Origin: an uncultured Acidimicrobiia bacterium
GTDB taxonomy: Bacteria; Acidobacteriota; Terriglobia; Versatilivoradales; Versatilivoraceae
Assembly (NCBI GenBank): GCA_963786955.1
Contig: CAWBAT010000005.1
Coordinates: 1,120,001-1,184,000, forward strand
Direction: 5' to 3'
Length of the DNA stretch: 64,000 bases
The notes under the pieces were generated by a model. That model was not told the DNA's origin and ran no database searches. It saw only the letters and a list, made by a program, of their open reading frames with translations. Numbering within the stretch: position 1 is the first letter of the stretch; every line of letters starts with the position of its first letter. A program made the translations under genes and the position numbers. Positions 5,769 through 52,211 of the stretch are shown piece after piece.

Positions 5769-7094
5769 ATGAATGCCTGGCAAAGAATTCTCGAATTCAT
5801 TGAAGTTCGGATCAGTAAACAAAATTTTGCGACTTGGTTTAAACCGACCCAGTTTCAGCAGCTCGATGAGAGTAATCAGCTGATTGTCACGGTCCCCAAT
5901 CAAGTTTTTGAGGATTGGCTCACCTCAACTTACTCCGGCCTTATCGACGAAGCAATTCGAGGAACCGGGCTACAAGATTTAAAGATAACTTTTCGTGCGC
6001 TGCCCCTGTCGCCCTCCAAAGTAGAGGGTGCTTCCCCGGCCCCACCTATTCAAAAGACGCTTGATTTTGATTCCGTCGACTATCTGCTCAACCCTAAATA
6101 TACTTTTGAGCGTTTTGTTGTCGGCTCCTCCAATCAATTTGCTCATGCCGCCTCTCTTGCGGTCGCAGAGTCCCCAGCCAGAATCTACAATCCACTTTTC
6201 ATTTGTGGCGGTGTGGGACTGGGAAAGACTCATCTCATGCAGGCCGTAGGTCACCGTATCAAGGCGCTGGATCGAAGAGTCCGTTTGAGCTATGTCTCAT
6301 CCGAGAAATTCACCAATGAGGTCATCAATGCGATCCGCTATGACCGTACTCTGGCATTGCGGGAGAAGTATCGCAATGTCGATATTCTTCTCATCGACGA
6401 CATTCAATTCATTTCTGGAAAGCAAGCGACACAGGAGGAGTTTTTTCATACTTTCAACGACCTTTATGATGCGCAAAAGCAAATTGTCCTTTCCAGTGAC
6501 TCCCTCCCAAAGGAAATTCCTGATATCCAAGAACGGTTACAGTCCCGCTTTGAATCGGGTCTCATAGCCGATATCCAGCCGCCCGATTTAGAAACCAAGG
6601 TGGCAATCCTGAAAAAGAAAGCAGAGTTTGAGAATTTTAATATACCCGACAACGTGGCGTTTTACATTGCAAGCAAAATAAAATCCAATATCCGCGAATT
6701 AGAAGGGTCCCTGTTACGACTCATGGCGTTTAGTTCATTGCGAGATGAAAAAGTTACGTTGGGGATGGCACAAGAAGTTCTCAAGCATATTCTCAAATCC
6801 CAGGAAAAACACATCTCGATTGAACAAATCCAAAAGCTTGTAGCGGATTATTTTGACTTAAAGGTCAGTGAACTCAAGTCCAAAAACAATTCCAAAGCAA
6901 TCGCTCAGCCGCGACAAATTGGAATGTACCTATGCCGTCAATTGACTGACGCCTCCTTACCAGAAATTGGGCGAGAATTTGGCGGGAAACATCACACCAC
7001 GGTTCTGCACTCGATTAAAAAAGTTGGGGAGAAAATGGGCGTTAACAGGGAATTCAACAGTTTGATCAGTAAACTCAATGATTCCTTTCAATGA
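5769..7094 (+). CDS. dnaA: Chromosomal replication initiator DnaA
   Basis: YNPLFICGGVGLGKTHL, LLIDDIQF, NIRELEG and GGKHHTTVLH. Confidence 0.98.
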   Translation: MNAWQRILEFIEVRISKQNFATWFKPTQFQQLDESNQLIVTVPNQVFEDWLTSTYSGLIDEAIRGTGLQDLKITFRALPLSPSKVEGASPAPPIQKTLDFDSVDYLLNPKYTFERFVVGSSNQFAHAASLAVAESPARIYNPLFICGGVGLGKTHLMQAVGHRIKALDRRVRLSYVSSEKFTNEVINAIRYDRTLALREKYRNVDILLIDDIQFISGKQATQEEFFHTFNDLYDAQKQIVLSSDSLPKEIPDIQERLQSRFESGLIADIQPPDLETKVAILKKKAEFENFNIPDNVAFYIASKIKSNIRELEGSLLRLMAFSSLRDEKVTLGMAQEVLKHILKSQEKHISIEQIQKLVADYFDLKVSELKSKNNSKAIAQPRQIGMYLCRQLTDASLPEIGREFGGKHHTTVLHSIKKVGEKMGVNREFNSLISKLNDSFQ

Positions 7095-14645: not shown

Positions 14646-14722
14646 GTAGTGCTATTCACAAATACGGTGACGTTATCTTATGATAGGCGCCGGGTGAGGT
14701 TGGGGCTATGAGAAGGCCCTAA

Positions 14723-16702
14723 CCCAACTTCGTCACGTTAGAGTCGATTTTAGTTTTTTTGATGGTTGGGGCGAGGGAAGTGGTTTGTTTACAGCACTGG
14801 GATTGTGGAAAGCCGATGTAGTGCAGACCTACCCCCTTGTGTGGGCTCGATCGGCATGTCACTATCGGGCCTTATGTTTCTGCGATCTCATCAGCGAAGC
14901 AAAGATGGTAAGGATCATCGTTACTGGTCTTTGGTCGAGACGGTTCGCACGCCTGACGGGCCAAGGCAGCGAACGCTCTGTTACCTGGGAGAACTGAATG
15001 GCAACGCGCAGGCCCGTTGGCTAAAGACCATTGAGGTGTTCAACGAACAAGGGGAAAGTCGTCAGTTAAAGTTGTTTCCGGCGGAGGTGGAGTTTTCCGA
15101 CAACGATCCGAATGTGGCGCGAGTGTTGTTGAAGAAAGTTCGTTTGGAACGAACGCGCCAGTTTGGAAACTGTTTTTTGGGTCTGGAACTGTGGAAGCGA
15201 CTGGGACTGGATAGGTTTTACGAAGGGCAGCTGGATCAAGAGAGGGCCCAGGTTGGCTGGTCGCGGGTGGCGGCGGTTCTGGCGATCAACCGGCTGTGTG
15301 CTCCTGGCAGTGAGTTGTCGATTGAAGAGCGTTGGTATCCGTCCACAGCCTTGGATGATCTGCTGGGGATTGGGGAGGGCCAGCTCAACGACACCCGCCT
15401 GTATCGTTGTCTGGATCGTTTGTTGCCGCACAAGAAGAAGCTGGAACAACATCTCAAGCAGCGTTATGGGGAACTGTTTGGGGCGGAGTTTGATGTCCTG
15501 CTGTATGACCTGACGAGCAGTTATGTGGAAGGGGCCGCCGAGCAGAACCCGCTGCTGCAGCGCGGGTATTCGCGGGATCACCGGCCCGACTGCAAGCAGT
15601 TGATCATCGCTTTGATTGTGAATGTCGAGGGATTTCCATTCAGTTACGAGACTATGGATGGAGACCGTGCGGATGTGACCACGCTGGAAACGATGTTGCA
15701 AATGGTGGAGCGAAAGTATGGAAAGGCACGGCGGGTGTGGGTATTTGACCGGGGGATCGTCAGTGAGGAGAACCTGGCTGCTTTGCGAAAACGCGGGGGG
15801 CAGTATTTGGTGGGAACGCCGCGGAAGAAGCTGAAGGAGTTTGAACAGGAGTTACTGGCAGAGGGCTGGGAGCAGGTGCGGCCGGAGGTAGAAGTGAAAC
15901 TGGTCGCGACGCCGGCTGGCGAAGAAACCTACGTGTTGTGCCGGACGGCCGCTCGCCAGCAGAAAGAGAGGGCGATTCGGAGTCGCTTCTCGGCCCGGAT
16001 CGAGGAGGCGCTCGGTCGACTCGCCAAACGCGTGCGGGAGGGAAGGCTCAAAGACCGCAACAAGATCGAGCGCCAGATCGGAAAGATCCAAGCCCGCCAT
16101 CCGCAGGTGGCGGATTTGTACCAGATGGATGTTGAGGAAACCAGCCAGGGGCTTCGCTTCGTCTGGAAGCTGGTGAAGGACTGCCAAGCCTGGCAGCAAC
16201 TGCGCGAGGGTGCTTACCTGCTGAGGACCAATCTACAGGCTGAGAGCGCTGAACAGCTCTGGAGCCAATACATCCAACTGACGGAAGCCGAGGCGGCGTT
16301 TCGTGTCTTAAAGAGCGAACTGTTGATTCGTCCGCTCTTTCATCAGCTCGAACGCCGCGTGAAGTCCCATGTCTTGGTGGCCTTCCTGGGTTACGCGCTC
16401 TGGGTGACGCTCAAACATCTTCTTCATCGAAAAGGCTCAAAGCTGTCTCCGGCCAAAGCCTTGTCGCTGCTGTCAAGCGTACACAGCACTGACATCATCC
16501 TTCCGACAACCGACGGCCGTCAGATCAGGTTGCGTCGAGTGACGACGCCGACCGAAGAGCAAAATACCTTACTCGACCACCTCGGCTTGGAGTTGCCCGA
16601 AAGACTCAATTTTGACTATGAATGTAGTGCAGACTTAGCAGCAGGCTAAATTGTTTCTAAACGACTTAACAGAAAATCAGGTCACTTCGTGACGAACTTG
16701 GG
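14723..16702 (+). mobile_element. IS1634-family-like insertion sequence, 1980 bp
   Basis: 15-bp inverted repeats CCCAACTTCGTCACG (14723-14737) and CGTGACGAACTTGGG (16688-16702), one mismatch; 4-bp duplication CTAA at 14719-14722 and 16703-16706. Confidence 0.9.
14874..16649 (+). CDS. DDE transposase (IS1634 family)
   Basis: LLYDLTSSYVEG, RGYSRDHRPD, VFDRG and Y..L..AEAAFR.LKS.L.IRP.FHQ..RV..HV; start set at ATG 14874. Confidence 0.9.
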   Translation: MFLRSHQRSKDGKDHRYWSLVETVRTPDGPRQRTLCYLGELNGNAQARWLKTIEVFNEQGESRQLKLFPAEVEFSDNDPNVARVLLKKVRLERTRQFGNCFLGLELWKRLGLDRFYEGQLDQERAQVGWSRVAAVLAINRLCAPGSELSIEERWYPSTALDDLLGIGEGQLNDTRLYRCLDRLLPHKKKLEQHLKQRYGELFGAEFDVLLYDLTSSYVEGAAEQNPLLQRGYSRDHRPDCKQLIIALIVNVEGFPFSYETMDGDRADVTTLETMLQMVERKYGKARRVWVFDRGIVSEENLAALRKRGGQYLVGTPRKKLKEFEQELLAEGWEQVRPEVEVKLVATPAGEETYVLCRTAARQQKERAIRSRFSARIEEALGRLAKRVREGRLKDRNKIERQIGKIQARHPQVADLYQMDVEETSQGLRFVWKLVKDCQAWQQLREGAYLLRTNLQAESAEQLWSQYIQLTEAEAAFRVLKSELLIRPLFHQLERRVKSHVLVAFLGYALWVTLKHLLHRKGSKLSPAKALSLLSSVHSTDIILPTTDGRQIRLRRVTTPTEEQNTLLDHLGLELPERLNFDYECSADLAAG

Positions 16703-17084
16703 CTAAGCCTCCAAAGTTGTAGGCATGAAGCATTCTCAATGCTTCAACACCGCCCCGGCGTTAACGTCACCGTAATCACGAATAGCTGTTCTAAGTAACC
16801 GCATTCCACCTCACGACCCAGCTATTTTCTGCTTCCAGACCTGGGGGATTCCCGCTTTCCCGGGTCTCATTATCCTCCCGCATCTTCTTCACTCTGTTCC
16901 CCTTTCCCCCGTTTTGCACCTGCCCTACTTGAAGCCGCAACTTACGGAATTCTCTTGATTTGAACATGATGGGATCCCAGTCAAAATAAGGGGGAAGGTC
17001 AACCAATCAAAATAATGCCTTCCCCAAATTATGCCGATTTAGCTTTCTATAGAATGGTTTAGTCTGGATTGAAGGTCGGGCGAC

Positions 17085-17780
17085 ATGAAATCTGAAGCCT
17101 CAGCAAAAATATGGGTTGTGGATGATGATGTTGGATATGCCGGCGTGCTGGTAGACTGTTTTGCGGGTCTCAAATTCGATGTCGTCTATATGGACTCGGG
17201 CGAGAAGGCTTTGGAGGAACTTGAGCGGTCGAGGCCAGATCTGATCCTGCTGGATATTAAAATGCCCCTGATGGATGGCTTCGAATTGTGCCAGCGAATT
17301 CGAAGCCATCCCGAATACGATGGGGTCCTTATCATCATGCTGACCGGGGTGGGGGAAGTCGAGGACAAGATTAAGGCCATCGAAATTGGTGCTAACGATT
17401 ACGTGGTCAAGCCTTCCGGGCTCTCGCAATTGTTTGAGGTGATTGCCCGGGTCAACCGCTTTCTCGAAACCAAGCGCGGATATCTTCAAAAAATGGAAGA
17501 AGAGAAATTCGGGGCACTAAAGGGCACCACGAATACCCTCTGCCACGAGATCAATAACCCGCTCACCGCCATCTTTGGTTCAGCCAGAACTCTTGCCAAC
17601 CGGCTGGCAGAGAGGGACGAATTCTCAGACTTGCTAAGGGAAACCAACAATATCCTGGACGCTTCCCAGAGAATTCGCACGATCACCCAACAACTGGCTC
17701 GCGCAATCCGCGTGGTCACCACCGAGCCGGTCCCTGGGGTAACCATGATCGATCTCGACGCCTCTGCCAAGGAAGAGTAA
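17085..17780 (+). CDS. Receiver domain + HisKA-like dimerisation domain protein (no ATPase domain)
   Basis: VVDDD, LLDIKMP and YVVKP in the receiver; H-box CHEINNPL; protein ends ~75 aa after the His. Confidence 0.85.
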   Translation: MKSEASAKIWVVDDDVGYAGVLVDCFAGLKFDVVYMDSGEKALEELERSRPDLILLDIKMPLMDGFELCQRIRSHPEYDGVLIIMLTGVGEVEDKIKAIEIGANDYVVKPSGLSQLFEVIARVNRFLETKRGYLQKMEEEKFGALKGTTNTLCHEINNPLTAIFGSARTLANRLAERDEFSDLLRETNNILDASQRIRTITQQLARAIRVVTTEPVPGVTMIDLDASAKEE

Positions 17781-18006
17781 TCCTACAGTGCCAACAGACC
17801 TTCGGGACAGCCCTGGCAGGACAGCCTCGCCGAGACTGCCGATGATTTAGCGTGCCATCCAATTGCCTCTTCCTTTAATTTACCCGAACGGGATTCCTAT
17901 CTGACTGCAGTGCTACGGACATGGCCGCCGATGAACGCTGATAAACAGGAAAGAGAAGAAGGGTTTGCTTACGGCTGAGCCTTCAATTGTCAGGTTCGTA
18001 AACAGC

Positions 18007-18240
18007 TCAAGAGGCCTCCTGCCGGAAGGCTTCCAGAGTCCAAATGGTCACATCTTCTCCCCAACGATTGCGCAGAACATAAAAGTTGTTGTCTTCGGCT
18101 CTGACTCGAAAATAGCTGTTGCCGGGACTGTACCACTGGTCTGTCACCTCTTTAACTTCAAGGCACCGATCTCCCAGAAAAAAGCGCAAGGGGCGCTCAT
18201 CAGCCTTATATCCGGAATGACATTCAACCCGAATGCGCAT
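18007..18240 (-). CDS. Small hypothetical protein
   Basis: MRIRVECHSGYKADERP..DQWY...SYFRV; co-oriented behind the Mo-hydroxylase operon. Confidence 0.7.
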   Translation of the reverse strand: MRIRVECHSGYKADERPLRFFLGDRCLEVKEVTDQWYSPGNSYFRVRAEDNNFYVLRNRWGEDVTIWTLEAFRQEAS

Positions 18241-18299
18241 AAGTTGTATCGTTGCCCCCTGAACAACTGGCAACAGGAAAGCAATTTCGGAATTCGAGC

Positions 18300-20576
18300 T
18301 TATGGGTTCTGTTTCTGCTGTAGAGCCTTAAAGATTCGCGGCGGAGACATGGGCAGCTCATACATTCGCACGCCGATGGCGTGATAAATGGCATTCGCAA
18401 TAGCCGCGGGCGGCGGGACAATCGGAACCTCACCGACTCCACGCACTCCGTAAGGGTGGCCCGGGTTGGGGACCTCGACAATAATGGTTTCTATCATCGG
18501 TAGATCCAGGCTTGTTGGCATTCGATAGTCCAAGAAACTGGCGTTCAGCATTTGTCCGGTTTCATTATAAACGTACTCCTCGTTGAGGGCCCAGCCGATT
18601 CCCTGCACAGCCCCACCTTGCATTTGACCTTCGACATAGCTCGGGTGGATGGCTTTTCCAACATCCTGAACCGCCGTATATCGCAAGATGGTCACTTTGC
18701 CTGTTTCCGGATCCACCTCAACATCAGCAATATGAGTTGCAAACGCCCCGCCCACGCCGGCGGGGGTAACCGTTGTGCGGGTCCCGATATCAATGCCTCT
18801 CTCGGCCAGATTTGCGGCGAGCTTTTTGAAGGTGATGGTCTGCTCGGGGTTGGGGATTGATGAAAACAGGCCATCTTCATAACGGACCTGGTCTGGATTG
18901 ACCTTCCACAGCTTAGCAGCTTCCGCGATCAACTGTTTCTTGATCTCTTGGCCTGCCTCATAGGCGGCCCAACCGGTCGCAAAGGTCACGCGGCTTCCCC
19001 CGGTTACTTCCGTGTAACCGACGGACTCGGTGTCGACCACCGATGGGTGCACGTCTTCTGCTCGAATCCCGAGAGACTCGGCGAGTTGCATCGCCACCGA
19101 CGTCCGGGTGCCGCCAATGTCTGTAGAGCCTTCCGCCAGAGTGACGGTTCCGTCACCATTGAGTCGTGTCACGACACTGGAAGTGAAGCCCACATTCAAC
19201 CAATAACCGGAAGCCACCCCTCTTCCTCGATACGGTCCAGCCAGGGGAGAGCGATAGTGCTCGGAGCTGCGGGCGGCCTCAACAGTTTCGATATTGCCAA
19301 TCTTGGGATGGCGTACGCCATGAGACTGAAGATCACCCTCCTTGGCGGCATTCTTGAGGCGGAATTCAAAGGGGTCCATTGCGAGGAGCTCGCAGAATTC
19401 ATCGATCAAAGCTTCGGTCGCAAATTCGGCGTTGGGAGCTCCCGGTGCTCGATAGGCCGCCGTTTTCGGCTTGTTGACGACTACGTCGTACATTTCAATG
19501 ACCACGTTTTCCACGTTGTACGGGGCGATCAAACAAATCCCTCCGCAATTCACAATGGATCCTGGGAACGCACCCGCTTCGTAGGCCAGCATGGCCTCGA
19601 CAGCGGTGATGTGACCGTCCCGCGTAACCCCCATTTTCAAGCGGACGTAGGACGCAGAAGTCGGCCCGGATCCAATAAAAACTTCCGTTCGGTTCATCTG
19701 GACCTTCACCGGACGTCTGGCTTTTTGGGAGAGCAAGGCGGCAATGGGTTCCACATAGACGGGAATCTTTCCGCCAAACCCTCCGCCAATCTCGGTCGGA
19801 ATTACTTTGAGTTTTGAAACCGGGATGTTGAGGATTTGATGCACACTCGTGCGGACGGTAAAAGCACCTTGCGTACTGCTCCATATCGTGAGTTGGCCAT
19901 CGGCATTCCACGATGCCGTGGCGGCGTGAGGCTCGATATACCCCTGATGGACTGTGGCGCTTCGATATTCACGTTCAAGAATGTGGTCAGCCGCGGCAAA
20001 TCCTGCCTGGATATCCCCTTTTTGAAAGGTCTGATGAGAAGCCACATTACTCGGAGCAGCGCTCTTGTGGCCCAGCTCGTCAGTGTGAAGGGTTTCGTGC
20101 AGCAAGGGAGAGGTTTCTTTCATGGCCGCGAGAACTTCGAGGACAACGGGAAGCACTTCGTATTCAACCTCGATCTGCTTCAGCGCCTCTTCTGCAATAT
20201 GAGGGCTGGTGGCAGCCACGGCGGCAATGGCATGGCCATGATAAAGGACCTTGCCCGAAGCCAGCACATTCTGGCTCAGGTATTTGAGAGGAACTTCCCC
20301 TAACTCCCCCAAGAGAGCCGTACGATCACCCATATCCGGAAGATCAACGGCTGTCACGACGGCTTTGACTCCCGCCATCGCCTCTGCTTTTTCTGTCTTG
20401 ATCGATTTGATTCGGGCATGGGCGTGGGGGCTGCGCAAAATCTTCCCATGGAGCAGCCCGGTAAGCTGGATATCGGCCCCATACAAAGCTCTTCCTGTGA
20501 CTTTGTCTACTCCATCGTGTCGTACAGGCCGTGTGCCAATGACTTTGTAAGGCCCCTCCATCGTTGTCGAACTCAT
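18300..20576 (-). CDS. Xanthine dehydrogenase-family molybdopterin-binding (large) subunit
   Basis: DKVTGRALY, LRSPHAHA, IGGGFGGK, AYRAPG, EGQMQGG and RGVGE. Confidence 0.92.
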   Translation of the reverse strand: MSSTTMEGPYKVIGTRPVRHDGVDKVTGRALYGADIQLTGLLHGKILRSPHAHARIKSIKTEKAEAMAGVKAVVTAVDLPDMGDRTALLGELGEVPLKYLSQNVLASGKVLYHGHAIAAVAATSPHIAEEALKQIEVEYEVLPVVLEVLAAMKETSPLLHETLHTDELGHKSAAPSNVASHQTFQKGDIQAGFAAADHILEREYRSATVHQGYIEPHAATASWNADGQLTIWSSTQGAFTVRTSVHQILNIPVSKLKVIPTEIGGGFGGKIPVYVEPIAALLSQKARRPVKVQMNRTEVFIGSGPTSASYVRLKMGVTRDGHITAVEAMLAYEAGAFPGSIVNCGGICLIAPYNVENVVIEMYDVVVNKPKTAAYRAPGAPNAEFATEALIDEFCELLAMDPFEFRLKNAAKEGDLQSHGVRHPKIGNIETVEAARSSEHYRSPLAGPYRGRGVASGYWLNVGFTSSVVTRLNGDGTVTLAEGSTDIGGTRTSVAMQLAESLGIRAEDVHPSVVDTESVGYTEVTGGSRVTFATGWAAYEAGQEIKKQLIAEAAKLWKVNPDQVRYEDGLFSSIPNPEQTITFKKLAANLAERGIDIGTRTTVTPAGVGGAFATHIADVEVDPETGKVTILRYTAVQDVGKAIHPSYVEGQMQGGAVQGIGWALNEEYVYNETGQMLNASFLDYRMPTSLDLPMIETIIVEVPNPGHPYGVRGVGEVPIVPPPAAIANAIYHAIGVRMYELPMSPPRIFKALQQKQNP

Positions 20577-21058
20577 TTTTTCAATTCCTCCAGGCGACTT
20601 TCTGCGTCAAGAACCGCTCGAATGATCTTATCGTAGCCGGTGCAGCGGCACAAATTTCCGGCACACCAGTGGCGGATCTCGGCTTCCGTGGCGTGTGGAT
20701 TACGGTCTAGCAGAGCCTTCGCAGCGACAATAAATCCCGGTGTACAAATGCCACATTGGAGCGCGGCGTTCTCAAGAAACGCCTGCTGCAAGGGATGTAA
20801 TCCATTGGGTCCCATGACCCCCTCGATCGTTTCGATGAGGGCTCCCTCTGCTTCTGGTCCTAACACGAGGCAGGAGTTGACGAGCAAGCCATTCATGATG
20901 ACGTTACAAGCCCCACAATTCCCATTATTACAGCCTTCTTTGGAACCGATGAGGTTGAGCTCATCCCGCAAGACTTCCAGCAGGCTTTGTCGCGGCTCGC
21001 AGAGAAACTCGATATGGTCTCCGTTGATCGTGGTGTTGACCTGGACTTTTCCTGGCAT
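20573..21058 (-). CDS. Xanthine dehydrogenase-family 2x[2Fe-2S] small subunit
   Basis: GCNNGNCGAC..C, QCGICTPG and GNLCRCTGY. Confidence 0.95.
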   Translation of the reverse strand: MPGKVQVNTTINGDHIEFLCEPRQSLLEVLRDELNLIGSKEGCNNGNCGACNVIMNGLLVNSCLVLGPEAEGALIETIEGVMGPNGLHPLQQAFLENAALQCGICTPGFIVAAKALLDRNPHATEAEIRHWCAGNLCRCTGYDKIIRAVLDAESRLEELKK

Positions 21059-21060
21059 CG

Positions 21061-21936
21061 TTAAGCCCCCTTTGCTCGTTCAATAGCCGAATGAAGCGCA
21101 CGGCGGGTCAGGACCCCCACCAGATGGCGCCGGTATTCCGCAGTTCCTCGCATATCGGTAATTGGATGCGAAACAGCCTGTGCTGAAGCGGCCGCTTTCT
21201 GAATCGATTCCTCGCTGATCTTTTTTCCGGTGAGATAGGATCCCGCTTCTTTTGCCAACAAAGGGGTGGGGGCCACGGCTCCAAGAGCGATTCTTGCTCG
21301 AACGCACGTCAGTCGATCCGCGCTTAACTCGATGGAAACCCCGCAGCCGACCACGGCGATGTCCATTTCATTCCGAGGAATAAATCGCAAATAGCTTGCG
21401 CCAAAATGCTTCGGTGGAGGTGGGATCTTCAGGGCAACCAGGAGTTCGGTGGGCGACAATACGTTTTTTCCCGGCGCGGTGCAAAAATCCTCCACGGGAA
21501 CCGTTCTTGTGCCTTCAGGCCCCGCAATCCAACAGACCGCATGATGCGCGATGAGTGCAGGAATCGAATCTGCGGCCGGCGATGAGTTACAGAGGTTTCC
21601 CCCGAACGAGGCGCGGCTTTGGATTTGGACGCCGCCGACGAGCGATGCGGCGTCGACTAGCCCCGGGTAGATTTTTTGGATCCCAGGGTCTTCATAGATC
21701 CGGTAGCAAGGGACAGAGGCGCCCAGATGAAGGCCTTGAATCGGGTCGTACCGCATTTCTATCAGTTCGGGGATCTTCTTGATATCGATCATCATGTCGA
21801 GATGACGGCGGTCTTCCCTGACCTGGACGATTAGGTCCGTCCCGCCACTCAAAACTCGAGCACGATTTCCTTTTACCTGGAGTAAGGCAAGCGCTCCCTG
21901 CAAAGTGGACGGAGCCGCGTATTCAAACGTTTGCAA
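21061..21936 (-). CDS. Xanthine dehydrogenase-family FAD-binding medium subunit
   Basis: SGGTDL, ASFGGNLCNSSPAAD and D.RGTAEYR; TTG start after an AGGGAGG RBS. Confidence 0.92.
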   Translation of the reverse strand: MQTFEYAAPSTLQGALALLQVKGNRARVLSGGTDLIVQVREDRRHLDMMIDIKKIPELIEMRYDPIQGLHLGASVPCYRIYEDPGIQKIYPGLVDAASLVGGVQIQSRASFGGNLCNSSPAADSIPALIAHHAVCWIAGPEGTRTVPVEDFCTAPGKNVLSPTELLVALKIPPPPKHFGASYLRFIPRNEMDIAVVGCGVSIELSADRLTCVRARIALGAVAPTPLLAKEAGSYLTGKKISEESIQKAAASAQAVSHPITDMRGTAEYRRHLVGVLTRRALHSAIERAKGA

Positions 21937-22017
21937 TTTTCTTACCTCCCTATGTTCTGATCGAAGAATAATCGAACGAAGAAAGAGAATCAATCGAAAG
22001 CGAAATAATGTAGAGAA

Positions 22018-23187
22018 TCACCGACTGATCTGCCGGGTGGCTTCTTCGATTCGGTCCAGAGCGTTTGCCAGGTTCTCCATTGAATTGGCGTAGGAGAGTC
22101 GAATGAATCCTTCACCGTAGGCCCCGAACGAGGCACCTGAAAGGACCGCCACGCCTGCCTTATCGAGCAGGTAGTCCGCAAAGTCAGCACTGTTCATTCC
22201 AAAAGACCGGATGTTGGGAAACGCATAAAATGCCCCTGGAGGACAAACACAGTGAATCCCGGGTATGGCATTGAGCCGCTTCCAAACGAAGTCTCGCCTG
22301 CTTCGAAACTCCTCCACCATCTGATGGACTTCCTTCTTTGTGTGAGTCAGCGCCACCAGGCCGGCTCTTTGGACGAATGGAGCCGTGCAAGAGACGCTGT
22401 TCGTAACCAGAGTAGAGATGTGTGTCTGCAAGTCTGGATGCATGATTCCGTAACCCAATCGCCAGCCCGTCATGGCATAGGTCTTCGAAAAACCATCTAA
22501 GATGACGGTTCGCGCAAGCATATCCGGGAATGAGCTGATACTGTGATGTTTGCCTTCATACAGGATCTTCCCGTAAATTTCATCGGACAGAATCCAGATA
22601 TCTTTGTCTCTGGCAATGTCTGCGATCGCCTCGAGATCGCCTTCGGTGAGGACACCGCCGGTAGGGTTCTGAGGTGAATTGATAATAATCAACCTCGTCT
22701 TAGAGGTGACTCTTTGCTTCAGGTCTTCTACTCTGAACCGGAAATCGTGCTCTTCAACAAGAGGAAGTGAAACAGGTTTTCCACCGACGAAGTTGATCAT
22801 CGATTCGTAGATCGGGAACCCGGGGTTTGGAGTAATGACCTCATCTCCGTCATCGACGACGGCCAGGATGAGGTAAAACATAATGGGTTTGGCGCCGGGC
22901 GTGATCACAACCCAATCCGGATCCACCGAGATTCCTCTGGTTTGCCCGACTTCTGTGGCAATGGCTGCGCGAAGTTCGTTCAATCCCGATGGACCACAAT
23001 AATGCGTATACCCCTCATCGAGCGCCTGTTTCGCGGAATCGATCACCGCTTTGGGAGTGGGGAAATCAGGCTCGCCAATTTCGAGATGGATAATTTGCCT
23101 GCCTTGAGCCTCCAGGGCCTTGGCTTTTACCAAAACCTGGAAGGCACTCTCCGTTCCAAGTTTGCTGAGACGTTTGGCCAGTTTCAA
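22018..23187 (-). CDS. PLP-dependent class I/II aminotransferase
   Basis: IGEPDF, NSPQNPTG, SDEIY and SKTYAMTGWRLG; TTG start after AAGGAG. Confidence 0.93.
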   Translation of the reverse strand: MKLAKRLSKLGTESAFQVLVKAKALEAQGRQIIHLEIGEPDFPTPKAVIDSAKQALDEGYTHYCGPSGLNELRAAIATEVGQTRGISVDPDWVVITPGAKPIMFYLILAVVDDGDEVITPNPGFPIYESMINFVGGKPVSLPLVEEHDFRFRVEDLKQRVTSKTRLIIINSPQNPTGGVLTEGDLEAIADIARDKDIWILSDEIYGKILYEGKHHSISSFPDMLARTVILDGFSKTYAMTGWRLGYGIMHPDLQTHISTLVTNSVSCTAPFVQRAGLVALTHTKKEVHQMVEEFRSRRDFVWKRLNAIPGIHCVCPPGAFYAFPNIRSFGMNSADFADYLLDKAGVAVLSGASFGAYGEGFIRLSYANSMENLANALDRIEEATRQISR

Positions 23188-23191
23188 ATGT

Positions 23192-24040
23192 TTACTCCTT
23201 ATCCGTTGAATCGAGCAAAATTTTGTAAAGGGTCCGTTTAGGGATGCGAAACTGAATGGCCAGTTCTTTAAGCGCTTCATTCTTAGTCATTCCCAGCCGT
23301 TCGATCAACTCCTTGGTTTTTTCTTCGACCAGGTCTTTCATAGGGAGGCTTGAGGGGATCTCGGGCAAGTGTTTTTTCTCGAGGATCAAAACAATTTCGC
23401 CCTTTACAGGTTTTTTTGAAAAGTGGATGAGTGCCTCCGCGACGGTTCCAAAGAAAATCTCTTCGTAGATTTTTGTGATTTCTCTGACAACGGTGATCAG
23501 TCTTGGACCCAGGATTTCTTGAACATCCGCAAGCGTATCCAACAACCGGAGGGGCGATTCAAAAAGGATCACGGTATGGAGTTCTTCTTGGAGCGATTCT
23601 AAGCTCGCGCGGCGAGGATTCTTCCGCGCCGGAAGAAAGCCGAGAAAGATAAAGGAGTCTGTCGGACGGCCTGACGCGCTGAGGGCCGCGGTAAAAGAAC
23701 AGGGACCCGGAATCGGAACAACGCGAATTCCGTTCTCGAGAGCCTTTCGAACGATTCGGTATCCAGGGTCGGAGATGCAGGGTGTCCCCGCGTCGCTGAC
23801 GAGGGCAATTTGTCGCCCGTTTTGTAACTCCGTGAGTAGGCGCGAAGCCTTCTCCAGTTCATTGTGTTCGTGGTAGCTGATTTTGGGCTTATCAATTTGA
23901 TAATGTGTCAGGAGCTTCACCGTATGGCGAGTATCTTCGCAGGCGATCCAGTCGACTTCTCTTAGAACCTGGAGAGCACGCAAGGTAATATCTTCCAAAT
24001 TTCCAATGGGCGTGGCTACTACGTAAAGGGTACCAGACAT
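23192..24040 (-). CDS. rsmI: 16S rRNA (cytidine1402-2'-O)-methyltransferase
   Basis: LYVVATPIGNLEDIT, ACEDTR and SDAGTPCISDPG. Confidence 0.96.
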   Translation of the reverse strand: MSGTLYVVATPIGNLEDITLRALQVLREVDWIACEDTRHTVKLLTHYQIDKPKISYHEHNELEKASRLLTELQNGRQIALVSDAGTPCISDPGYRIVRKALENGIRVVPIPGPCSFTAALSASGRPTDSFIFLGFLPARKNPRRASLESLQEELHTVILFESPLRLLDTLADVQEILGPRLITVVREITKIYEEIFFGTVAEALIHFSKKPVKGEIVLILEKKHLPEIPSSLPMKDLVEEKTKELIERLGMTKNEALKELAIQFRIPKRTLYKILLDSTDKE

Positions 24041-24157
24041 GAAGAATTTGTACTTACAGAAAGCATGGCGTCAACATTTTCCCCCAAAGTAGGAGAATTC
24101 ATAAAGCGGACCCTTCAAGCAAGAGAGGACAATATCCCCAAACGGAAATCGGCAAGG

Positions 24158-24970
24158 TCAGAGTCCCCAGTCTCGCAGATAATGGAAGTCATGCATGATG
24201 GATCGCGGAGAGAGTTTGCTGATAATGGGTCCGCGTCGTTTGAATTGAGAATTCTGAATTTTCTGAACAATTTTGTGGACAAATTCCTCTTTGAAGCCTT
24301 TCTGAATGAGGGTTTGGGGCCGAGACCGGTTATCAATAAGCTCATGGAGCAATTCATCCACTTCGGCGTATGTAAACCCCAACTCGTCTTCGTCGGATTG
24401 GCCAGCCCACAGATCTGCGGTTGGCTTTTTTTTCAGAATGGAGTCCGGAATACCCAGGTAGGCCGCCAACTGAAAGATATCTGTCTTATAAAGGTCGCCA
24501 ATAGGATTGATGGCCGAGGCCATGTCGCCGTAGAGAGTACCGTAGCCGAGAAGCAACTCGGTTTTATTGGAGGTTCCCAGGACGAGAGCCCGCTTTTCCA
24601 TGGACTTATCGAATAGGACAATCATGCGTGCCCGCGCCATGGCATTCCCGCGACGCAACGAACTGGCTTCCGGTTGTGAGGCAAAATAACCATCAATAAT
24701 AGGAGTAATCTCGATGATTTCACTGGAAACCTGCAATCGATCGACCACCGCCATGGCATCCGTGAGGCTCTCCTTGCTGCTGGTCTTGTACGGCATCAGA
24801 ATCGCATGAACACTCGTGGGGCCCAGCGCTCGCTCGGCCAGAACACAGGAAACGGCAGAATCAATGCCTCCGGAAAGCCCGACAACGATTCGGGAGAAAC
24901 CGGTTTTTCCCAGTTCATCGCGAATAAAGCTTTCAAGTACCTTGGCGGTCAATTCACAATTGATTCTCAT
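24158..24970 (-). CDS. nadE: NAD+ synthetase (synthetase domain only)
   Basis: GLSGGIDS, GTSNKTE..LGYGT.YGD and PTADLW.GQSDE. Confidence 0.95.
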   Translation of the reverse strand: MRINCELTAKVLESFIRDELGKTGFSRIVVGLSGGIDSAVSCVLAERALGPTSVHAILMPYKTSSKESLTDAMAVVDRLQVSSEIIEITPIIDGYFASQPEASSLRRGNAMARARMIVLFDKSMEKRALVLGTSNKTELLLGYGTLYGDMASAINPIGDLYKTDIFQLAAYLGIPDSILKKKPTADLWAGQSDEDELGFTYAEVDELLHELIDNRSRPQTLIQKGFKEEFVHKIVQKIQNSQFKRRGPIISKLSPRSIMHDFHYLRDWGL

Positions 24971-33899: not shown

Positions 33900-35405
33900 G
33901 TGAACAGCATCACGAACACTCCTTCGCATTTTACCTTTCTTGACTATTCAATTGTTGCTGCATACCTAATCGGGATTACCATCGCCGGCGTCAAACTCGC
34001 GGGGCAGCAGCATTCGTTGCGAGATTATTTTCTTGGCGGCAAAACCATGTCATGGTGGGCCGTGGGTTTTTCCATGGTAGCGAGTGAGACCAGTACTCTG
34101 ACATTCGTGAGTGTCCCCGGACTCGCTTACATGGGCAACTTGAACTTTCTGCAATTGGCCTTTGGTTATTTCATTGGCCGATTGTTGGTCGCGGTCTATT
34201 TTATTCCAGTCTATTACCGGAGGGACCTAGAAACGGCGTATGATTTCCTGGGAAAAAGATTTGGGCTTCGCCTGCGACAAGTGATTTCAATTGTGTTCTT
34301 GTTCACGCGGGTTCTCTCCTCTGGGGTGAGGCTTTTTGCAACTGCAATCCCCGTTCATCTTGTCACCGGCATAGGGTATCGAAATTCCATCCTGTTGATT
34401 GGCCTCTTTACAATTGTTTACACCTACCTGGGCGGTTTAAAGGCTGTTGTAACCATGGATGTGGTTCAGTTAGCAATCTATCTCTGTGGGGCAGCGATTT
34501 CCGTCATCATTATCCTGACTCGTCTTCCCCATGGCTGGGCAGACGTCTTGAGCCATGCTTATTCAGGGACATCGAGCAAATTTGACGTGCTAAACCTGGA
34601 ATGGGGAAATTCATTGAACCAGTTTCTGAGCACTCCTTACACCTTAATGGGAGGGCTCATCGGAGGGACGTTTCTTAGCATGGCTTCTCATGGTACCGAC
34701 CAACTCCTTGTCCAACGCCTGTTGGGATGCAAATCTTCTCAAGACAGCCAACGAGCCCTCATTTTGGATGCGCTGCTCATCAATATTCAGTTTGCCTTCT
34801 TCCTGATTTTAGGACTGTGCCTGTTTGCCTTCTATCACGGGCGAGATCTTTCAGCCTTGGGCCTACAGTCTTCTGATGAAATATTTCCGAAATTTATTGT
34901 AGAGAATCTACCTCCGGGAGTTGCAGGGATCGTTGTGGCGGGAGTTCTAGCCTCTGCCATGGGGACACTGTCCTCTGCGATCAGTTCTCTTGCCTCCTCT
35001 TCTTATCTGGATCTTTATAAGCGGGGTTCCGGAGGAAATCGGGTAGAACAAAGCAATGAGATTGCAGGGTCCCGATTCTTTGCGTTATTTTGGGGAGTCG
35101 TTCTGGTCGCAGGGGGGATGCTTTTTAAAGATACCAAGGCGCCTGTCGTGGTGCTGGGCTTGAAGATCGCTTCCTTTACTTATGGCAGTATGCTGGGAGT
35201 CTTTCTGTTAGGAATCTTTTTCAGACAGGTCAATCAGAAAGATGCCATGATTGGTTTCCTCATGGGTATCCTTTGCACAGGAGCGATTCTGAAATATACG
35301 ACCATCGCATTTACGTGGTACGGCTGTATTGGCTGCGTTGTAACGTTGGGAGTGGCAGCTGTTTCGAGAGTTTTATGGAAGCAAGATCGAGGGGCGCTCA
35401 ATTAA
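33900..35405 (+). CDS. Sodium:solute symporter family transporter
   Basis: DYFLGG, SETS, GGLKAVV and DQLLVQR; many TM helices. Confidence 0.9.
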   Translation: MNSITNTPSHFTFLDYSIVAAYLIGITIAGVKLAGQQHSLRDYFLGGKTMSWWAVGFSMVASETSTLTFVSVPGLAYMGNLNFLQLAFGYFIGRLLVAVYFIPVYYRRDLETAYDFLGKRFGLRLRQVISIVFLFTRVLSSGVRLFATAIPVHLVTGIGYRNSILLIGLFTIVYTYLGGLKAVVTMDVVQLAIYLCGAAISVIIILTRLPHGWADVLSHAYSGTSSKFDVLNLEWGNSLNQFLSTPYTLMGGLIGGTFLSMASHGTDQLLVQRLLGCKSSQDSQRALILDALLINIQFAFFLILGLCLFAFYHGRDLSALGLQSSDEIFPKFIVENLPPGVAGIVVAGVLASAMGTLSSAISSLASSSYLDLYKRGSGGNRVEQSNEIAGSRFFALFWGVVLVAGGMLFKDTKAPVVVLGLKIASFTYGSMLGVFLLGIFFRQVNQKDAMIGFLMGILCTGAILKYTTIAFTWYGCIGCVVTLGVAAVSRVLWKQDRGALN

Positions 35406-35898
35406 GGGGAGTCGATGCAGAATCGGCCGGCCCTGTCATCTCGTAACGAAGGACATGGTCCTGCATGATAAAAAAATAGCGTACTCCGCTAGCGGCAACT
35501 CCTGTAGGAACGGAGGGGGTTGCCGTCGCCGTGTATTCATCTGCAGGGGATGTTCCTGGAGAAGACTCGAAAACATAGCCACTCTTGATGCCTGACCCTA
35601 CAAGATTGTCGACGATACTTTCCTGGTTCAGGGATGCCAATGTTGTGTACTGTCCCTGAGTTTGACGATAAACAAGCTGACCGCCCGCGATGAGCTTTAG
35701 GGTTGAAACGGCTGATGCCTCATTCGCTGCTCGGCGCGCTTTCATAAGATTTGGAACGGCGATGGAGGCCAGTAAAGTAATAATGGCCAGTACAAGCAAG
35801 AGTTCTAAGAGAGTAAAGCCTTGCGGCGCAGCTCTATTGAACGGCGCGTTGACCCGTGCTGAAGAATTAGATTGTGACTCCGCATTGTCACTTTTCAT
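35398..35898 (-). CDS. Type IV pilin/pseudopilin-like protein
   Basis: Prepilin motif G|FTLLELLLVLAII followed by ARRAANEASA. Confidence 0.85.
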   Translation of the reverse strand: MKSDNAESQSNSSARVNAPFNRAAPQGFTLLELLLVLAIITLLASIAVPNLMKARRAANEASAVSTLKLIAGGQLVYRQTQGQYTTLASLNQESIVDNLVGSGIKSGYVFESSPGTSPADEYTATATPSVPTGVAASGVRYFFIMQDHVLRYEMTGPADSASTPLN

Positions 35899-36012
35899 GC
35901 TGACTCTATGATCGTCATTCCCGGTCTCCGGGTTTATAGGCAGGTTAGAGAATTCAAGTTAGGGAACCGATGAAATCGTTTCGCCACAATACCTGTTCTT
36001 TCAATTGCTTAG

Positions 36013-36172
36013 TACTGCTATTGGTAATTGCTGTGACGCATCTTACGACAGGCGCCGCGTGAGGCTGGGGGCTTTGAGAAAGCCCCCAGCCTACAAAGTT
36101 GTAGGCATGAAGCATTTTCAATGCTTCATCACCGACCCGGCGTTATCGTCACTGTATTTATGAAAAGCAGTA
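36013..36172 (+). mobile_element. 160-bp MITE-like element, copy 2 (intact)
   Basis: Ends TACTGCT...AGCAGTA flanked by CTTAG at 36008-36012 and 36173-36177. Internal hairpins AGGCTGGGGGCTTT/AAAGCCCCCAGCCT and ATGAAGCATT/AATGCTTCAT. Same length as reconstructed copy 1. Confidence 0.8.
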
Positions 36173-36223
36173 CTTAGATTAAGATCAGGGGAAGAGGAAC
36201 CCACCCATTTGGAGGCATACGAT

Positions 36224-36532
36224 ATGAAACTCCACTCCGTCGTTCTACTGACTTTGCACACACCAAGGGAAAGGATCTGGGGGCTACTGATGGATTTAAC
36301 CCCTGCGGGCATTACGGTCTGCGGGATTGATCTCAGCGCTTTTGAGGACTGGCTTAGTCAGGTAGGCACAGATGAAGAGATGGGTCTGAGCACGGTCTTT
36401 TACCCTCTTCAACGAGTAGAGCGGGTTGCAATGGACGAACGGATGGGGACCCTCCCCTCCCTGCACGACCGATTTCAACTGAAAACCATGAAACAATTAG
36501 TCGACTACGTGGAAGATTTCGGTTTCAAGTAA
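36224..36532 (+). CDS. Hypothetical protein
   Basis: GGAGG RBS before ATG 36224; 102-aa ORF. Confidence 0.7.
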   Translation: MKLHSVVLLTLHTPRERIWGLLMDLTPAGITVCGIDLSAFEDWLSQVGTDEEMGLSTVFYPLQRVERVAMDERMGTLPSLHDRFQLKTMKQLVDYVEDFGFK

Positions 36533-42069: not shown

Positions 42070-42144
42070 GGGCGCTTAACTCAGCGGTAGAGTGCCACCT
42101 TCACACGGTGGAAGTCAGAGGTTCAAATCCTCTAGCGCCCACCA
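42070..42144 (+). tRNA. tRNA-Val(CAC)
   Basis: Acceptor stem GGGCGCT/AGCGCCC, anticodon arm CCACC-TTCACAC-GGTGG, T-loop GGTTCAAATCC and encoded CCA. Confidence 0.96.
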
Positions 42145-50060: not shown

Positions 50061-50139
50061 GGGGAATCCTTCCTGTTAATCAATGGTTGGGCCATCCGAG
50101 TACTCTCGGGCTGAAGCCGAGCATAGCCGTAGGTTTCAA

Positions 50140-50168
50140 TTGCCGCTGGCTTGCTCCTCGGTTACCAT
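50140..50168 (+). promoter_or_regulatory. Toxin-antitoxin operon promoter (likely leaderless)
   Basis: TTGCCG-17 nt-TACCAT, 7 nt before ATG 50176; no RBS. Confidence 0.6.
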
Positions 50169-50175
50169 CGAAGGC

Positions 50176-50487
50176 ATGACGTTGATCCAAGCAATTCGCG
50201 CAAAGGTTTTATCGGGTGCTTTTGAATTCTCGCAACACGCAGTTGACCAGACCATCCTACGACATATTAGCGTTCACGAGATCCGAGAAGCTATCAACGT
50301 GGGACAGGTGATCGAGGATTACCCGAACGACAAGTATGGTCCCAGTTGCCTGATCTTGGGATTCACCCAGGCAGGACGGCCGATTCATGTCCAGTGCAGT
50401 TATGCCTCTCGCCTGTTGGTGAAAGTCATCACGACCTACCAACCCGATCCGAATGAGTGGGTCGAATACAAACAACGGAGAAAATAA
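50176..50487 (+). CDS. DUF4258 putative toxin
   Basis: FSQHAVDQ, VIEDYPNDKYGPSCLILG, RPIHV and VITTYQPDPNEW. Confidence 0.88.
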   Translation: MTLIQAIRAKVLSGAFEFSQHAVDQTILRHISVHEIREAINVGQVIEDYPNDKYGPSCLILGFTQAGRPIHVQCSYASRLLVKVITTYQPDPNEWVEYKQRRK

Positions 50488-50488
50488 C

Positions 50489-50725
50489 ATGCCTGTTGAT
50501 ACGTCGGAAGAGACTTTTGTAGAACAGAAAGTAACCTACACCCTGGAAGTGCAAGGGCGTTTTATTATCATTGAGCATGTGCCCGCGCGCGTTTCGCTTC
50601 GCACAAGTGAACGATTCTTTTCTCCCGAGACGGTGGAGTGTCTCCAGAGGATTGTTTGGGAGCAAGGACCGCCCAGCCGTGTTATTGAAACCCCGGTGTT
50701 TGAGTATCCAGGCGTCATGGCCTAA
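50489..50725 (+). CDS. YgiT-type (MqsA N-terminal-like) putative antitoxin, lacking Zn-binding cysteines
   Basis: VTYTLE..G..IIIEHVPARV....ERFFSPETV; lies directly after the DUF4258 gene. Confidence 0.8.
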   Translation: MPVDTSEETFVEQKVTYTLEVQGRFIIIEHVPARVSLRTSERFFSPETVECLQRIVWEQGPPSRVIETPVFEYPGVMA

Positions 50726-50781
50726 CCACGGCATCACCCGACGCAAAACCGCGGCGGCGGGTGATGCCTCAGTCGTTCCGC
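50720..50781 (+). repeat. attC-like site 1 (62 bp)
   Basis: R'' GCCTAAC overlapping the stop codon, stem GGCATCACCCG/CGGGTGATGCC and R' GTTCCGC. Confidence 0.75.
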
Positions 50782-50800
50782 CACAGAGGAGAGGATACTT

Positions 50801-51367
50801 TTGTTGGCAATTGTGAGTGACAACCTTGTCGTTGCCCAGCCGATCTCCGGCGGTTTTAGCTGGACACTCGCCTCGCGCATTTGCCAGATGATCACCAAGG
50901 CTGAGGCCCAGTTTGGCGCTCGGGACCGGTCGTTCACCGTGTTGGGGGTTGAGTTCAGGAATGGAGTTCCGCAAGTTTGGTTCCCCGGTAACTGCGGACA
51001 TGTCGTAGTCCAACTCGGTCTATCTGCGATGCAAGACCCGAACCGAGCGTTGTTTCAACTCGCTCACGAGTGTGTGCATCTTCTGGATCCCGCACCAGGA
51101 GCGACCAATAATCTCGAAGAAGGCGTCGCCACCCATTTTTCACTTGAGTTTATGCAAGCCGAACTTGGGTTAACTTATTCGACAGGCGACGCGAAGTATG
51201 ACAGCGCGTGCAGTCTTGTGCGGTTGCTGATTTCGACGAAGAGTGATTCCGTCAGAGAACTTCGACGTTTACACGGCCCTCTACGTGGCATTACGACTCA
51301 ACAGATTTCAGGGATTTGCCCAAGTTTGAACGCAGGAACTGCCAGCCAGCTAGCGAACCCCTTTTAG
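50801..51367 (+). CDS. Hypothetical HExxH metallopeptidase-like cassette protein
   Basis: FQLAHECVHLL..LEEGVAT; GAGGAG RBS just after attC1. Confidence 0.75.
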   Translation: MLAIVSDNLVVAQPISGGFSWTLASRICQMITKAEAQFGARDRSFTVLGVEFRNGVPQVWFPGNCGHVVVQLGLSAMQDPNRALFQLAHECVHLLDPAPGATNNLEEGVATHFSLEFMQAELGLTYSTGDAKYDSACSLVRLLISTKSDSVRELRRLHGPLRGITTQQISGICPSLNAGTASQLANPF

Positions 51368-51375
51368 CGATGCCG

Positions 51376-51468
51376 GCCGAGCGAGGCGCTGCACCTGAAC
51401 GGGGCCGCTATACTGGTTTCGCGCGACATCAAGTTCTTGCTGCGGCCCCGGGAGCTTGGTCGTTAGAA
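51376..51468 (+). repeat. attC-like site 2 (93 bp, degenerate)
   Basis: GCCGAGC (mutated R''), GCTGCACCTG, stem CGGGGCCGC/GCGGCCCCG and R' GTTAGAA; the L' arm appears to have a small deletion. Confidence 0.7.
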
Positions 51469-51485
51469 AGATAAAAAAAGATCGT

Positions 51486-52211
51486 ATGGATAAAGAACAC
51501 ATCCTTTCTGAAATCAGACGTACGACCGAGGAAAACAGAAACAGTCCACTAGGTATCGCCAGGTTTGAGAAGGAAACTGGAATAAAAGTGTGGGATTGGA
51601 GAGGAAAGTATTGGACTAGATGGGCTGATGCACTTGCAGAAGCTGGGTACAGCAACCCTAATGAGATGCAAACCGCTTACCCGGATGAATTCTTAATTGA
51701 GAAGCTCATAGAGCTAATCCAGGAACTTGGTCACTTCCCTACAACAACCGAGCGCAGACTCAAGGGTCATCAAGACAAGAACTTCCCAACTCATAACACA
51801 TTTTCAAGATTCGGGGGCAAAGCAGACTTGATAGAGGCTGTTCTGAAGTATTGCGATACTCATGACAAAGATGCTGAAATCGTTGCAGCCTGCAAGGTAG
51901 CCGCTTCCACCGGAAAACTTCAGCTACGAGATAGAGCAGGACCAGAACCAATCGAATTAGGTTTTGTTTATCTGATGAAATCAGGCAAATATTTCAAGAT
52001 AGGCCGAACCAATTGCGCGGAAAGACGCGAATTTGAGCTCCGAATCCTGCTACCTGAGAAACTTGAATTGGTTCATAAGATTAAAACTGATGATCCTTGT
52101 GGAATTGAAAAATATTGGCACGATCGCTTTAAAGACAGCCGCAAAAGTGGAGAGTGGTTTGACCTTTCGCCCAGTGACGTCAAAGCCTTCAAGCGACGGA
52201 AGACGATGTAG
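51486..52211 (+). CDS. GIY-YIG (T5orf172-like) nuclease with N-terminal repeats
   Basis: GFVYLMKSG.YFKIGRT..RRE..E.YWH.RF...R..GEWF; N-terminal W.DALAEAG and F.RFGG helical repeats. Confidence 0.85.
   Translation: MDKEHILSEIRRTTEENRNSPLGIARFEKETGIKVWDWRGKYWTRWADALAEAGYSNPNEMQTAYPDEFLIEKLIELIQELGHFPTTTERRLKGHQDKNFPTHNTFSRFGGKADLIEAVLKYCDTHDKDAEIVAACKVAASTGKLQLRDRAGPEPIELGFVYLMKSGKYFKIGRTNCAERREFELRILLPEKLELVHKIKTDDPCGIEKYWHDRFKDSRKSGEWFDLSPSDVKAFKRRKTM

Follow-up and report, generated by a model that had tools for sequence, protein, structure and literature searches.

Repetitive extragenic palindromes (REPs) of group 3 are described as perfect palindromes with loops of 3-4 nt and a GTAG tag lying 0-2 nt away (PMC8266576), and a pair of such units whose GTAG tags face inward is known as a tail-to-tail heterodimer (PMC3733652). 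According to the latter paper, the REP dimers of A. variabilis GTAG-15 and H. neapolitanus CGTC-1 are always found inside long palindromic shells. Among MITEs (miniature transposable elements with inverted repeats), bcr1 is portrayed in reviews as a cruciform with two independent stem-loops (PMC3184786; PMC10969869), while PIF/Harbinger and IS5 elements are known to make 3-bp duplications (PMC4122938). Here we describe a 162-bp element that resembles each of these systems in part, found twice in a 64-kb stretch of DNA deposited as that of an uncultured Acidimicrobiia bacterium (contig CAWBAT010000005.1, positions 1,120,001 to 1,184,000; 'the window' below means this whole stretch). Its copies are called A (on the side of a pilin-like gene), B (on the side of gyrA) and L001 (in a relative, also on the gyrA side). 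On balance our analysis suggests that it is an old, lineage-restricted, non-autonomous MITE of the DDE type, with a TWA duplication inside CTWAG and a cruciform interior, an account that we hold to be probable, if by no means secure.

The element itself is real and lies far beyond chance. Once an insertion sequence (IS) and one CTAA are taken out of copy B, that copy measures 162 bp, as copy A does, and the two align end to end with 137 of 169 columns identical; the 162 bp counted with G...C ends equal the 160 bp, counted with T...A ends, that the initial annotation of this DNA had reported. When 36008-36177 was compared with the window by blastn, the right half of copy B (16706-16774) matched at 91.3% over 69 nt (E 2e-22) and its left half (14642-14719) at 78.5% over 79 nt (E 4e-9), and everything else returned was the palindrome matching itself or short chance similarity. 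Search and alignment therefore agree with the annotation that the element is present twice over its full length, and the BLASTN copy count that it had suggested stands, in the window, at two loci only, which are unrelated to each other. No divergent copy was found in the window or in L001 by nhmmer (run with --max and a profile of the three copies; best other match E 0.5), words taken from the inverted repeats gave additional matches in the window and L001 only within coding regions and never in pairs, and a blastn search in distant mode with the 170-mer found no match in plasmid and phage collections.

Each copy is bounded by imperfect terminal inverted repeats of the GTACTGCTATTC type (GTACTGC-type), initially annotated as about 26 bp long and confirmed here as 27-bp arms, which match each other at 21/27 positions in A, 20/27 in B and 19/27 in L001. 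Outside these arms are direct repeats, with CTTAG on both sides of A (whose surroundings read ...GCTTA, element, TTAGATT...) and CTAAG on both sides of B, giving a core of TTA in one case and TAA in the other; in L001 the flanks read CTAAG...CTAAA. The central base of the flanking pentamer is identical at both ends of every copy (T/T in A, A/A in B and L001). If the pentamer lay inside the inverted repeat its two centres would be complementary, so that identical centres, differing between insertions, indicate a target-site duplication. The CTTAG/CTAAG repeats noted earlier are thus upheld, and they differ between the insertions as a target duplication would; the annotation had also proposed to check whether CTWAG is invariant in every copy and hence part of the element, and the flanks were found to vary among copies. 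Copies A and B arose by separate, independent insertions, each of which duplicated a target of its own. But for its centre CTWAG is a palindrome, and because the C...G beside TWA can be counted with the repeat as well as with the inverted ends, the duplication fits 3, 4 or 5 bp alike. If it is of 3 bp, the copy A site before insertion would read ...GCTTAGATT..., with one TTA.

The criteria that we applied for a MITE were a length of about 50-800 bp without any coding capacity, terminal inverted repeats no shorter than 10-15 bp and a duplication that differs between insertions, and further, as taken up below, multiple copies at unrelated loci, filled and empty orthologous sites and an autonomous IS with matching ends. 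The element is small and non-coding, ends in inverted repeats and has direct repeats that differ between two unrelated loci, which bears out the MITE-like nature first proposed for it. The open reading frames (ORFs) that run over it are 30-64 aa long, in a frame that is not conserved between copies. Neither a 66-aa open frame across copy A nor a 63-aa ORF across the L001 copy, the latter searched against 1.84 billion representatives, has a protein relative, and these negatives mean no more than that gene calling has not rendered copies as proteins in the two frames used. A short ATG-started frame is present in the right hairpin of all copies; we considered a coding role for it and rejected this, as every difference is non-synonymous and the ribosome-binding spacing is poor.

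The copy beside gyrA gives the family some depth in time. One scan of a 185,579-species genome collection (596 Gb), with a 20-mer common to both copies as the query, matched a single stretch, L001. About one chance match is expected for a 20-mer in 596 Gb; this match is not chance, since L001 is syntenic with the window over 14384-24321, at about 88-92% DNA identity and without the IS. There the element lies at the same spot after the gyrA stop codon (L001 7593-7738, minus strand, 146 bp), and because the same site is filled in both genomes the insertion predates the split from this approximately 89% identical relative. It is also older than the IS, which interrupts copy B and whose own insertion is recent, given its absence from L001. 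Since the split the inverted repeats of the gyrA insertion have decayed at about the intergenic rate, and the miniature transposon is probably no longer active. The 20-mer core is single in the assembly of L001, so that the site upstream of the pilin-like gene may be empty there, may hold a copy that has diverged, or may be unassembled. At gyrA the left TAA of the flank is the gyrA stop codon itself: the insertion fell on this TAA and regenerated the stop through the duplication, which made the landing harmless. An element that duplicates TWA can hit a TAA stop in this way without harm, and the gyrA case is a neat example.

If the element is a DDE-type MITE, a transposase that is encoded elsewhere or has since been lost would bind the ~27-bp terminal inverted repeats and would insert the element into the palindromic target CTWAG by a staggered cut, the repair of which would duplicate the central TWA. 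The inner hairpins and the central GTAG/CTAC palindrome would then be ordinary MITE cargo, folding into a cruciform or multibranched structure as in bcr1 or Correia-type elements, and would not be substrates of a REP nuclease. Palindromic targets are a feature of IS5- and PIF-type transposases, including the extended target of maize PIF; a literal search for this PIF target motif returned no paper. Restriction to one lineage would be the norm for a family of this kind, since in a survey of MITEs across 183,232 genomes 98.2% of clusters were confined to one genus (PMC11602168).

The interior of the element is predicted to be highly structured. For copy A the predicted folding energy is -78.7 kcal/mol for the plus strand (z -7.7) and -73.7 kcal/mol for the minus strand (z -8.3), and none of 200 shuffles folds as well, in keeping with the multibranched fold of the whole unit that had been proposed; the inner GGCGCCG/CGGCGTT stem of that proposal is present and unchanged in all three copies. 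A hairpin scan of copy A found one GTAG unit on the plus strand at 36101 (a stem of 10 bp with a 3-nt loop, 2 nt past GTAG) and one on the minus strand at 36094 (a stem of 12 bp with a 3-nt loop, directly past GTAG), and in copy B it found a GTAG unit on the plus strand at 16719 only. Both of the annotated GTAG hairpins are therefore present in A, the only copy in which the left one is intact: in B it has degenerated and is interrupted by the IS, and in L001 its region is 16 alignment columns shorter and the G+C-rich hairpin is no longer formed. The units do point in opposite directions, as was reported, but the term 'head-to-head' has to be replaced: because the GTAG tags face inward, the pair is 'tail-to-tail' in the usage of Di Nocera et al. 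It should be noted that the two GTAG tags are not independent evidence, since both are arms of one central palindrome, which is kept in all copies but for one base in B. The coordinates of these features are collected in Table 1.

Table 1. Parts of the two copies of the element in the window, their flanking target copies and the resident insertion sequence.
Feature	Position	Strand	Details
Copy A	36012-36173	+	162 bp, G...C ends; between pilin-like gene and 102-aa ORF
Left target copy of A, TTA	36009-36011	.	within CTTAG 36008-36012
Left terminal inverted repeat of A	36012-36038	+	27 nt; 21/27 match right arm
Inner stem, left arm GGCGCCG	36051-36057	+	pairs with 36138-36144 (CGGCGTT)
Left hairpin	36062-36092	-	12-13 bp G+C-rich stem, 3-nt loop; directly after GTAG (complement of CTAC 36091-36094)
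Central palindrome CCTACAAAGTTGTAGG	36090-36105	.	both GTAG tags, facing inward; predicted third small hairpin
Right hairpin	36107-36129	+	10-bp A+T-rich stem, 3-nt loop; 2 nt past GTAG 36101-36104; best conserved part
Right terminal inverted repeat of A	36147-36173	+	27-nt arm
Right target copy of A, TTA	36174-36176	.	within CTTAG 36173-36177
Left target copy of B, TAA	14643-14645	+	also gyrA stop codon (ORF 13239-14645)
Copy B, left part	14646-14722	+	77 bp; left inverted repeat 14646-14672, inner stem 14686-14692, left hairpin degenerate and interrupted by IS
IS1634-family IS	14723-16702	+	1980 bp; transposase ORF 14766-16649; CTAA at 14719-14722 and 16703-16706; not part of element
Copy B, right part	16707-16791	+	85 bp; central palindrome, right hairpin 16726-16746, inner stem 16756-16762, right inverted repeat 16765-16791
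Right target copy of B, TAA	16792-16794	.	flanking repeat

Conservation is unevenly spread over the element. The core, a block at 36090-36146 that takes in the central palindrome together with the right hairpin and 3' spacer, matches at 52/57 positions between A and B, at 54/57 between A and L001 and at 55/57 between the orthologues B and L001, while A and B have 85/112 positions in common over the remainder of their length. Outside the core B and L001 share 25/31 positions of the left inverted repeat, 16/21 of the left spacer and 26/30 of the right inverted repeat, and around the element they share 241/294 (82%) of the intergenic flank and 90-93% of the coding DNA. The inverted repeats, at about 71-73% between A and B, are the least conserved part. 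Fisher tests on B and L001 gave p = 0.009 for the core against the rest of the element and p = 0.004 for the core against the intergenic flank, and the test on A and B gave p = 0.02, values that are indicative only, as the core segment was picked after the alignment had been seen. Conservation of the core between orthologues does not reflect selection for transposition and points to retention by the host; at the 3' end of gyrA the core is probably retained in this way, and a plausible role for it is that of a protective 3' stem-loop of the gyrA transcript, lacking the T-run of an intrinsic terminator. Gene conversion and chance in a small sample are alternative causes of the same pattern. The core could also be a working module inside a DDE-type inverted-repeat shell, either a REP-type target of a tyrosine (RAYT/TIRYT-like) nuclease or an exapted RNA 3'-end or regulatory signal, which we consider decidedly unlikely. 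Were it true, two regimes of mobilisation or selection would act on one element, with a shell that decays and a core that is kept, and a core bound or cut by a tyrosine nuclease, or serving as a host RNA signal, would link the REP/RAYT and DDE-MITE worlds; the relation between REP and DDE systems has been raised, and not settled, in the REP literature.

A best-conserved GTAG-hairpin core would also fit a unit of the REPIN or bacterial interspersed mosaic element (BIME) kind, that is, a tail-to-tail REP heterodimer serving as the single-stranded DNA target of a RAYT (TnpA-REP) or of a TIR-associated tyrosine transposase (TIRYT), with the outer palindrome belonging to the same unit. Both hairpins are like group 3 REPs in that the palindrome is perfect, the loop has 3 nt and the stem is 0-2 nt away from GTAG; tail-to-tail heterodimers, dimers in long palindromes and TIRYT genes in Acidobacteria have all been reported (PMC3733652), and the Atlas clusters nearest to the 102-aa ORF beside copy A are mostly from Acidobacteriota. 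Yet a direct target repeat is present at both insertions, which speaks against HUH-type mobility. HUH single-strand transposition (IS200/IS605, REP) is not known to make a target duplication. By a loose rule the 64 kb contain three GTAG hairpins, all of them within the element, where the same rule gave 4.3 on average in 30 shuffles, and neither hairpin has a stand-alone copy in the window or in 8 kb of L001. Nor is there a Y1 transposase among the 56 window ORFs scanned with Pfam (out of 107 of at least 100 aa, the 51 that overlap longer ORFs having been left out), the left unit, gone from L001 and decayed in B, is dispensable, and, as said, the two tags belong to one palindrome. An identity as a REPIN is therefore unlikely, and the earlier assignment of the hairpins to the RAYT-processed class of REPs finds no support in the same observations on chance frequency, Y1/HUH domains among the scanned ORFs and target duplication; the suggested search for a RAYT with the same hairpins found no Y1 domain in the scanned ORFs. 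The initial annotation had combined the two systems into a true hybrid, in which a DDE-mobilised shell captured an existing REP doublet and two mobilisation systems are at work. Both sets of hallmarks do occur together in one 162-bp unit, and inverted repeats of degenerate GTAG-1 units plus unrelated stem-loops are described from Pseudomonas (PMC3733652). It is the shape of the unit that suggests this hybrid, however: neither the window nor L001 contains an independent REP family built on these stems, no RAYT is found among the scanned window ORFs, GTAG plus a hairpin is near chance frequency under loose rules, and no second system is required, all of which makes the hybrid very unlikely.

Selection by the host offers a different way to explain the whole element, as a functional structured unit (a cruciform to which protein binds, or an RNA module for regulation or 3' ends) that was duplicated and then kept. 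The very stable fold on either strand, a core that between orthologues stands above both the intergenic flank and the coding DNA, and the positions, one directly behind gyrA and the other 50 nt upstream of a start codon, would suit such a role. It leaves the inverted ends and the differing direct repeats unexplained, and the two contexts, a 3' untranslated region and a divergent promoter, share nothing; a scan of copy A found no promoter-like (sigma-70) or intrinsic terminator-like site inside it. At gathering thresholds the only Rfam hit in the window was a tRNA-Val at 42070, a permissive Rfam scan of 35900-36300 gave three weak and implausible hits (14-17 bits, E 0.6-7.5) that fell far short of their thresholds, and an RNAalifold consensus of the three copies has no compensatory pair change, its variable pairs being mostly broken. 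We judge this host-functional explanation unlikely as well. The same Rfam and covariation checks, which the initial annotation had proposed, lend no support to its further idea of a mobile structured RNA, three copies being too few to exclude one.

The preferred account, a DDE-type MITE, has difficulties of its own. The repeat family counts two independent insertions (n=2), and the length of the duplication stays at 3-5 bp through the ambiguous C...G beside TWA. No transposase of the IS5 type or otherwise with matching ends is encoded among the 56 scanned window ORFs, where only one of the IS1634 family occurs; the search for an autonomous IS with the same ends, which had been recommended, was likewise negative in the window, the IS1634-family ends being unrelated. 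No empty orthologous site was found, the sole site compared (the gyrA 3' end in L001) being filled. The initial annotation had itself regarded two copies without empty sites as telling against the element, and this holds by half: two loci are in reach, and the gyrA site of L001 is occupied. Finally, a classical MITE family keeps its inverted repeats best, whereas here they are the worst conserved part and the GTAG core the best, a pattern expected of an HUH/REP-type recognition module or of a host function.

The IS that sits inside the left hairpin of copy B has its own ~15-bp inverted ends and CTAA duplication and encodes a 627-aa transposase (NCBIfam NF033559, E 2e-93; Pfam DDE_Tnp_1). We rejected it as a partner of the element, with which its ends share only the hexamer CGTCAC. 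Some IS families habitually insert into REP-like palindromes, according to a review by Delihas. A cyanobacterial origin, suggested by the Nezha and GTAG-15 precedents, was also rejected, as the HIP1 octamer occurs only twice in the 64 kb.

Copy A landed in the divergent promoter/5' region between a pilin-like gene on its left (35398-35898, minus strand) and a conserved hypothetical ORF of 102 aa (36224-36532, plus strand) that starts 50 nt past the end of the element and has a good ribosome-binding site, GGAGG, 8 nt upstream of its start. Since copy A occupies the whole 5' region of this ORF, the promoter must be located within the element or on its far side. Neither Pfam nor NCBIfam gave a match for the ORF, and its nearest ESM Atlas clusters (scores 0.96-0.97) are unnamed proteins of ~105 aa, commonest in Acidobacteriota. 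The window as a whole is a chromosomal origin region (gidA, trmE, yidC, rnpA, dnaA, dnaN, recF, gyrB, gyrA) with additional housekeeping and respiratory genes. Several of its features fit a diderm phylum better than Acidimicrobiia, among them a YidC that is long and includes a periplasmic domain, an alternative complex III, genes of the type IV pilin-like kind and a G+C content of 50.6%. With the Atlas clusters being mostly from Acidobacteriota, the Acidimicrobiia label may be wrong.

Three further observations concern the sequence around these loci. gyrA (12176-14645) is split into two overlapping ORFs, 12176-13423 and 13239-14645, with a change of frame near 13296-13310; the Pfam DNA_topoisoIV match crosses frames near a G run in ...GAGAGGGGCTCATATC..., where one surplus G would explain the break. 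In an essential gene this looks like a homopolymer error of sequencing or assembly rather than a pseudogene, a warning that other homopolymers, the G-run of the left hairpin among them, may not have their true length. A 169-bp stretch (17788-17956) closely following the response-regulator gene (17085-17780) is present in the window and absent from L001 (~6594-6597); it has no obvious inverted ends or duplication and may be a plain indel or another small insertion. Between the GMC oxidoreductase and ferrochelatase genes, 50083-52211 holds a DUF4258 protein (50083-50487), two ORFs without a Pfam match and a T5orf172/MUG113 (GIY-YIG-like) protein (51456-52211), possibly a small mobile or toxin-antitoxin-like islet.

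A match to an already described family had been named at the outset as evidence against the proposal, and none was found in the literature, in Rfam or in the plasmid and phage collections. Taken as a DDE-type MITE, the element adds one lineage-restricted member to a very large and mostly uncatalogued class, and for annotation it explains the non-coding DNA that abuts gyrA at its stop codon as well as the structure found 5' of a conserved small ORF, and it marks a target into which an IS1634-family IS has gone. With the GTAG REPs, BIMEs and REPINs it has in common perfect palindromes of 10-13 bp, each looped by 3 nt and preceded at 0-2 nt by GTAG, in an inverted pair that can fold into a larger hairpin (PMC3733652; PMC8266576); unlike in those systems, its units are not repeated alone in 64 kb, no RAYT is found nearby among the scanned ORFs, it is bounded by inverted repeats and a target duplication, and one unit is lost in L001. 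The architecture of a REP dimer in a shell is not new. It is the same in A. variabilis GTAG-15 and H. neapolitanus CGTC-1, whose shell does not occur without the dimer; sequences and hosts are others, and target duplications are not reported for those shells (PMC3733652). Tourist-like MITEs and IS5/PIF-Harbinger elements would resemble it in a 3-bp, A+T-only duplication (TTA/TAA) within a palindromic target, a likeness by duplication, with a length here of 3-5 bp and no IS5-type transposase in the scanned ORFs. No sequence match to the Correia/NEMIS, ERIC, bcr1, Nezha and Chunjie MITEs came from the searches of Rfam and of the plasmid and phage collections, and the element differs from these MITEs in having two known loci, no known partner IS and inverted repeats that are less conserved than the core. 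In overall build, however, it is these MITEs that the element recalls, as they are described with a size range of ~100-240 bp, inverted repeats of 15-30 bp, direct repeats, a gene-adjacent intergenic position and a very stable predicted fold, all of which are found here (PMC3184786; PMC10969869).

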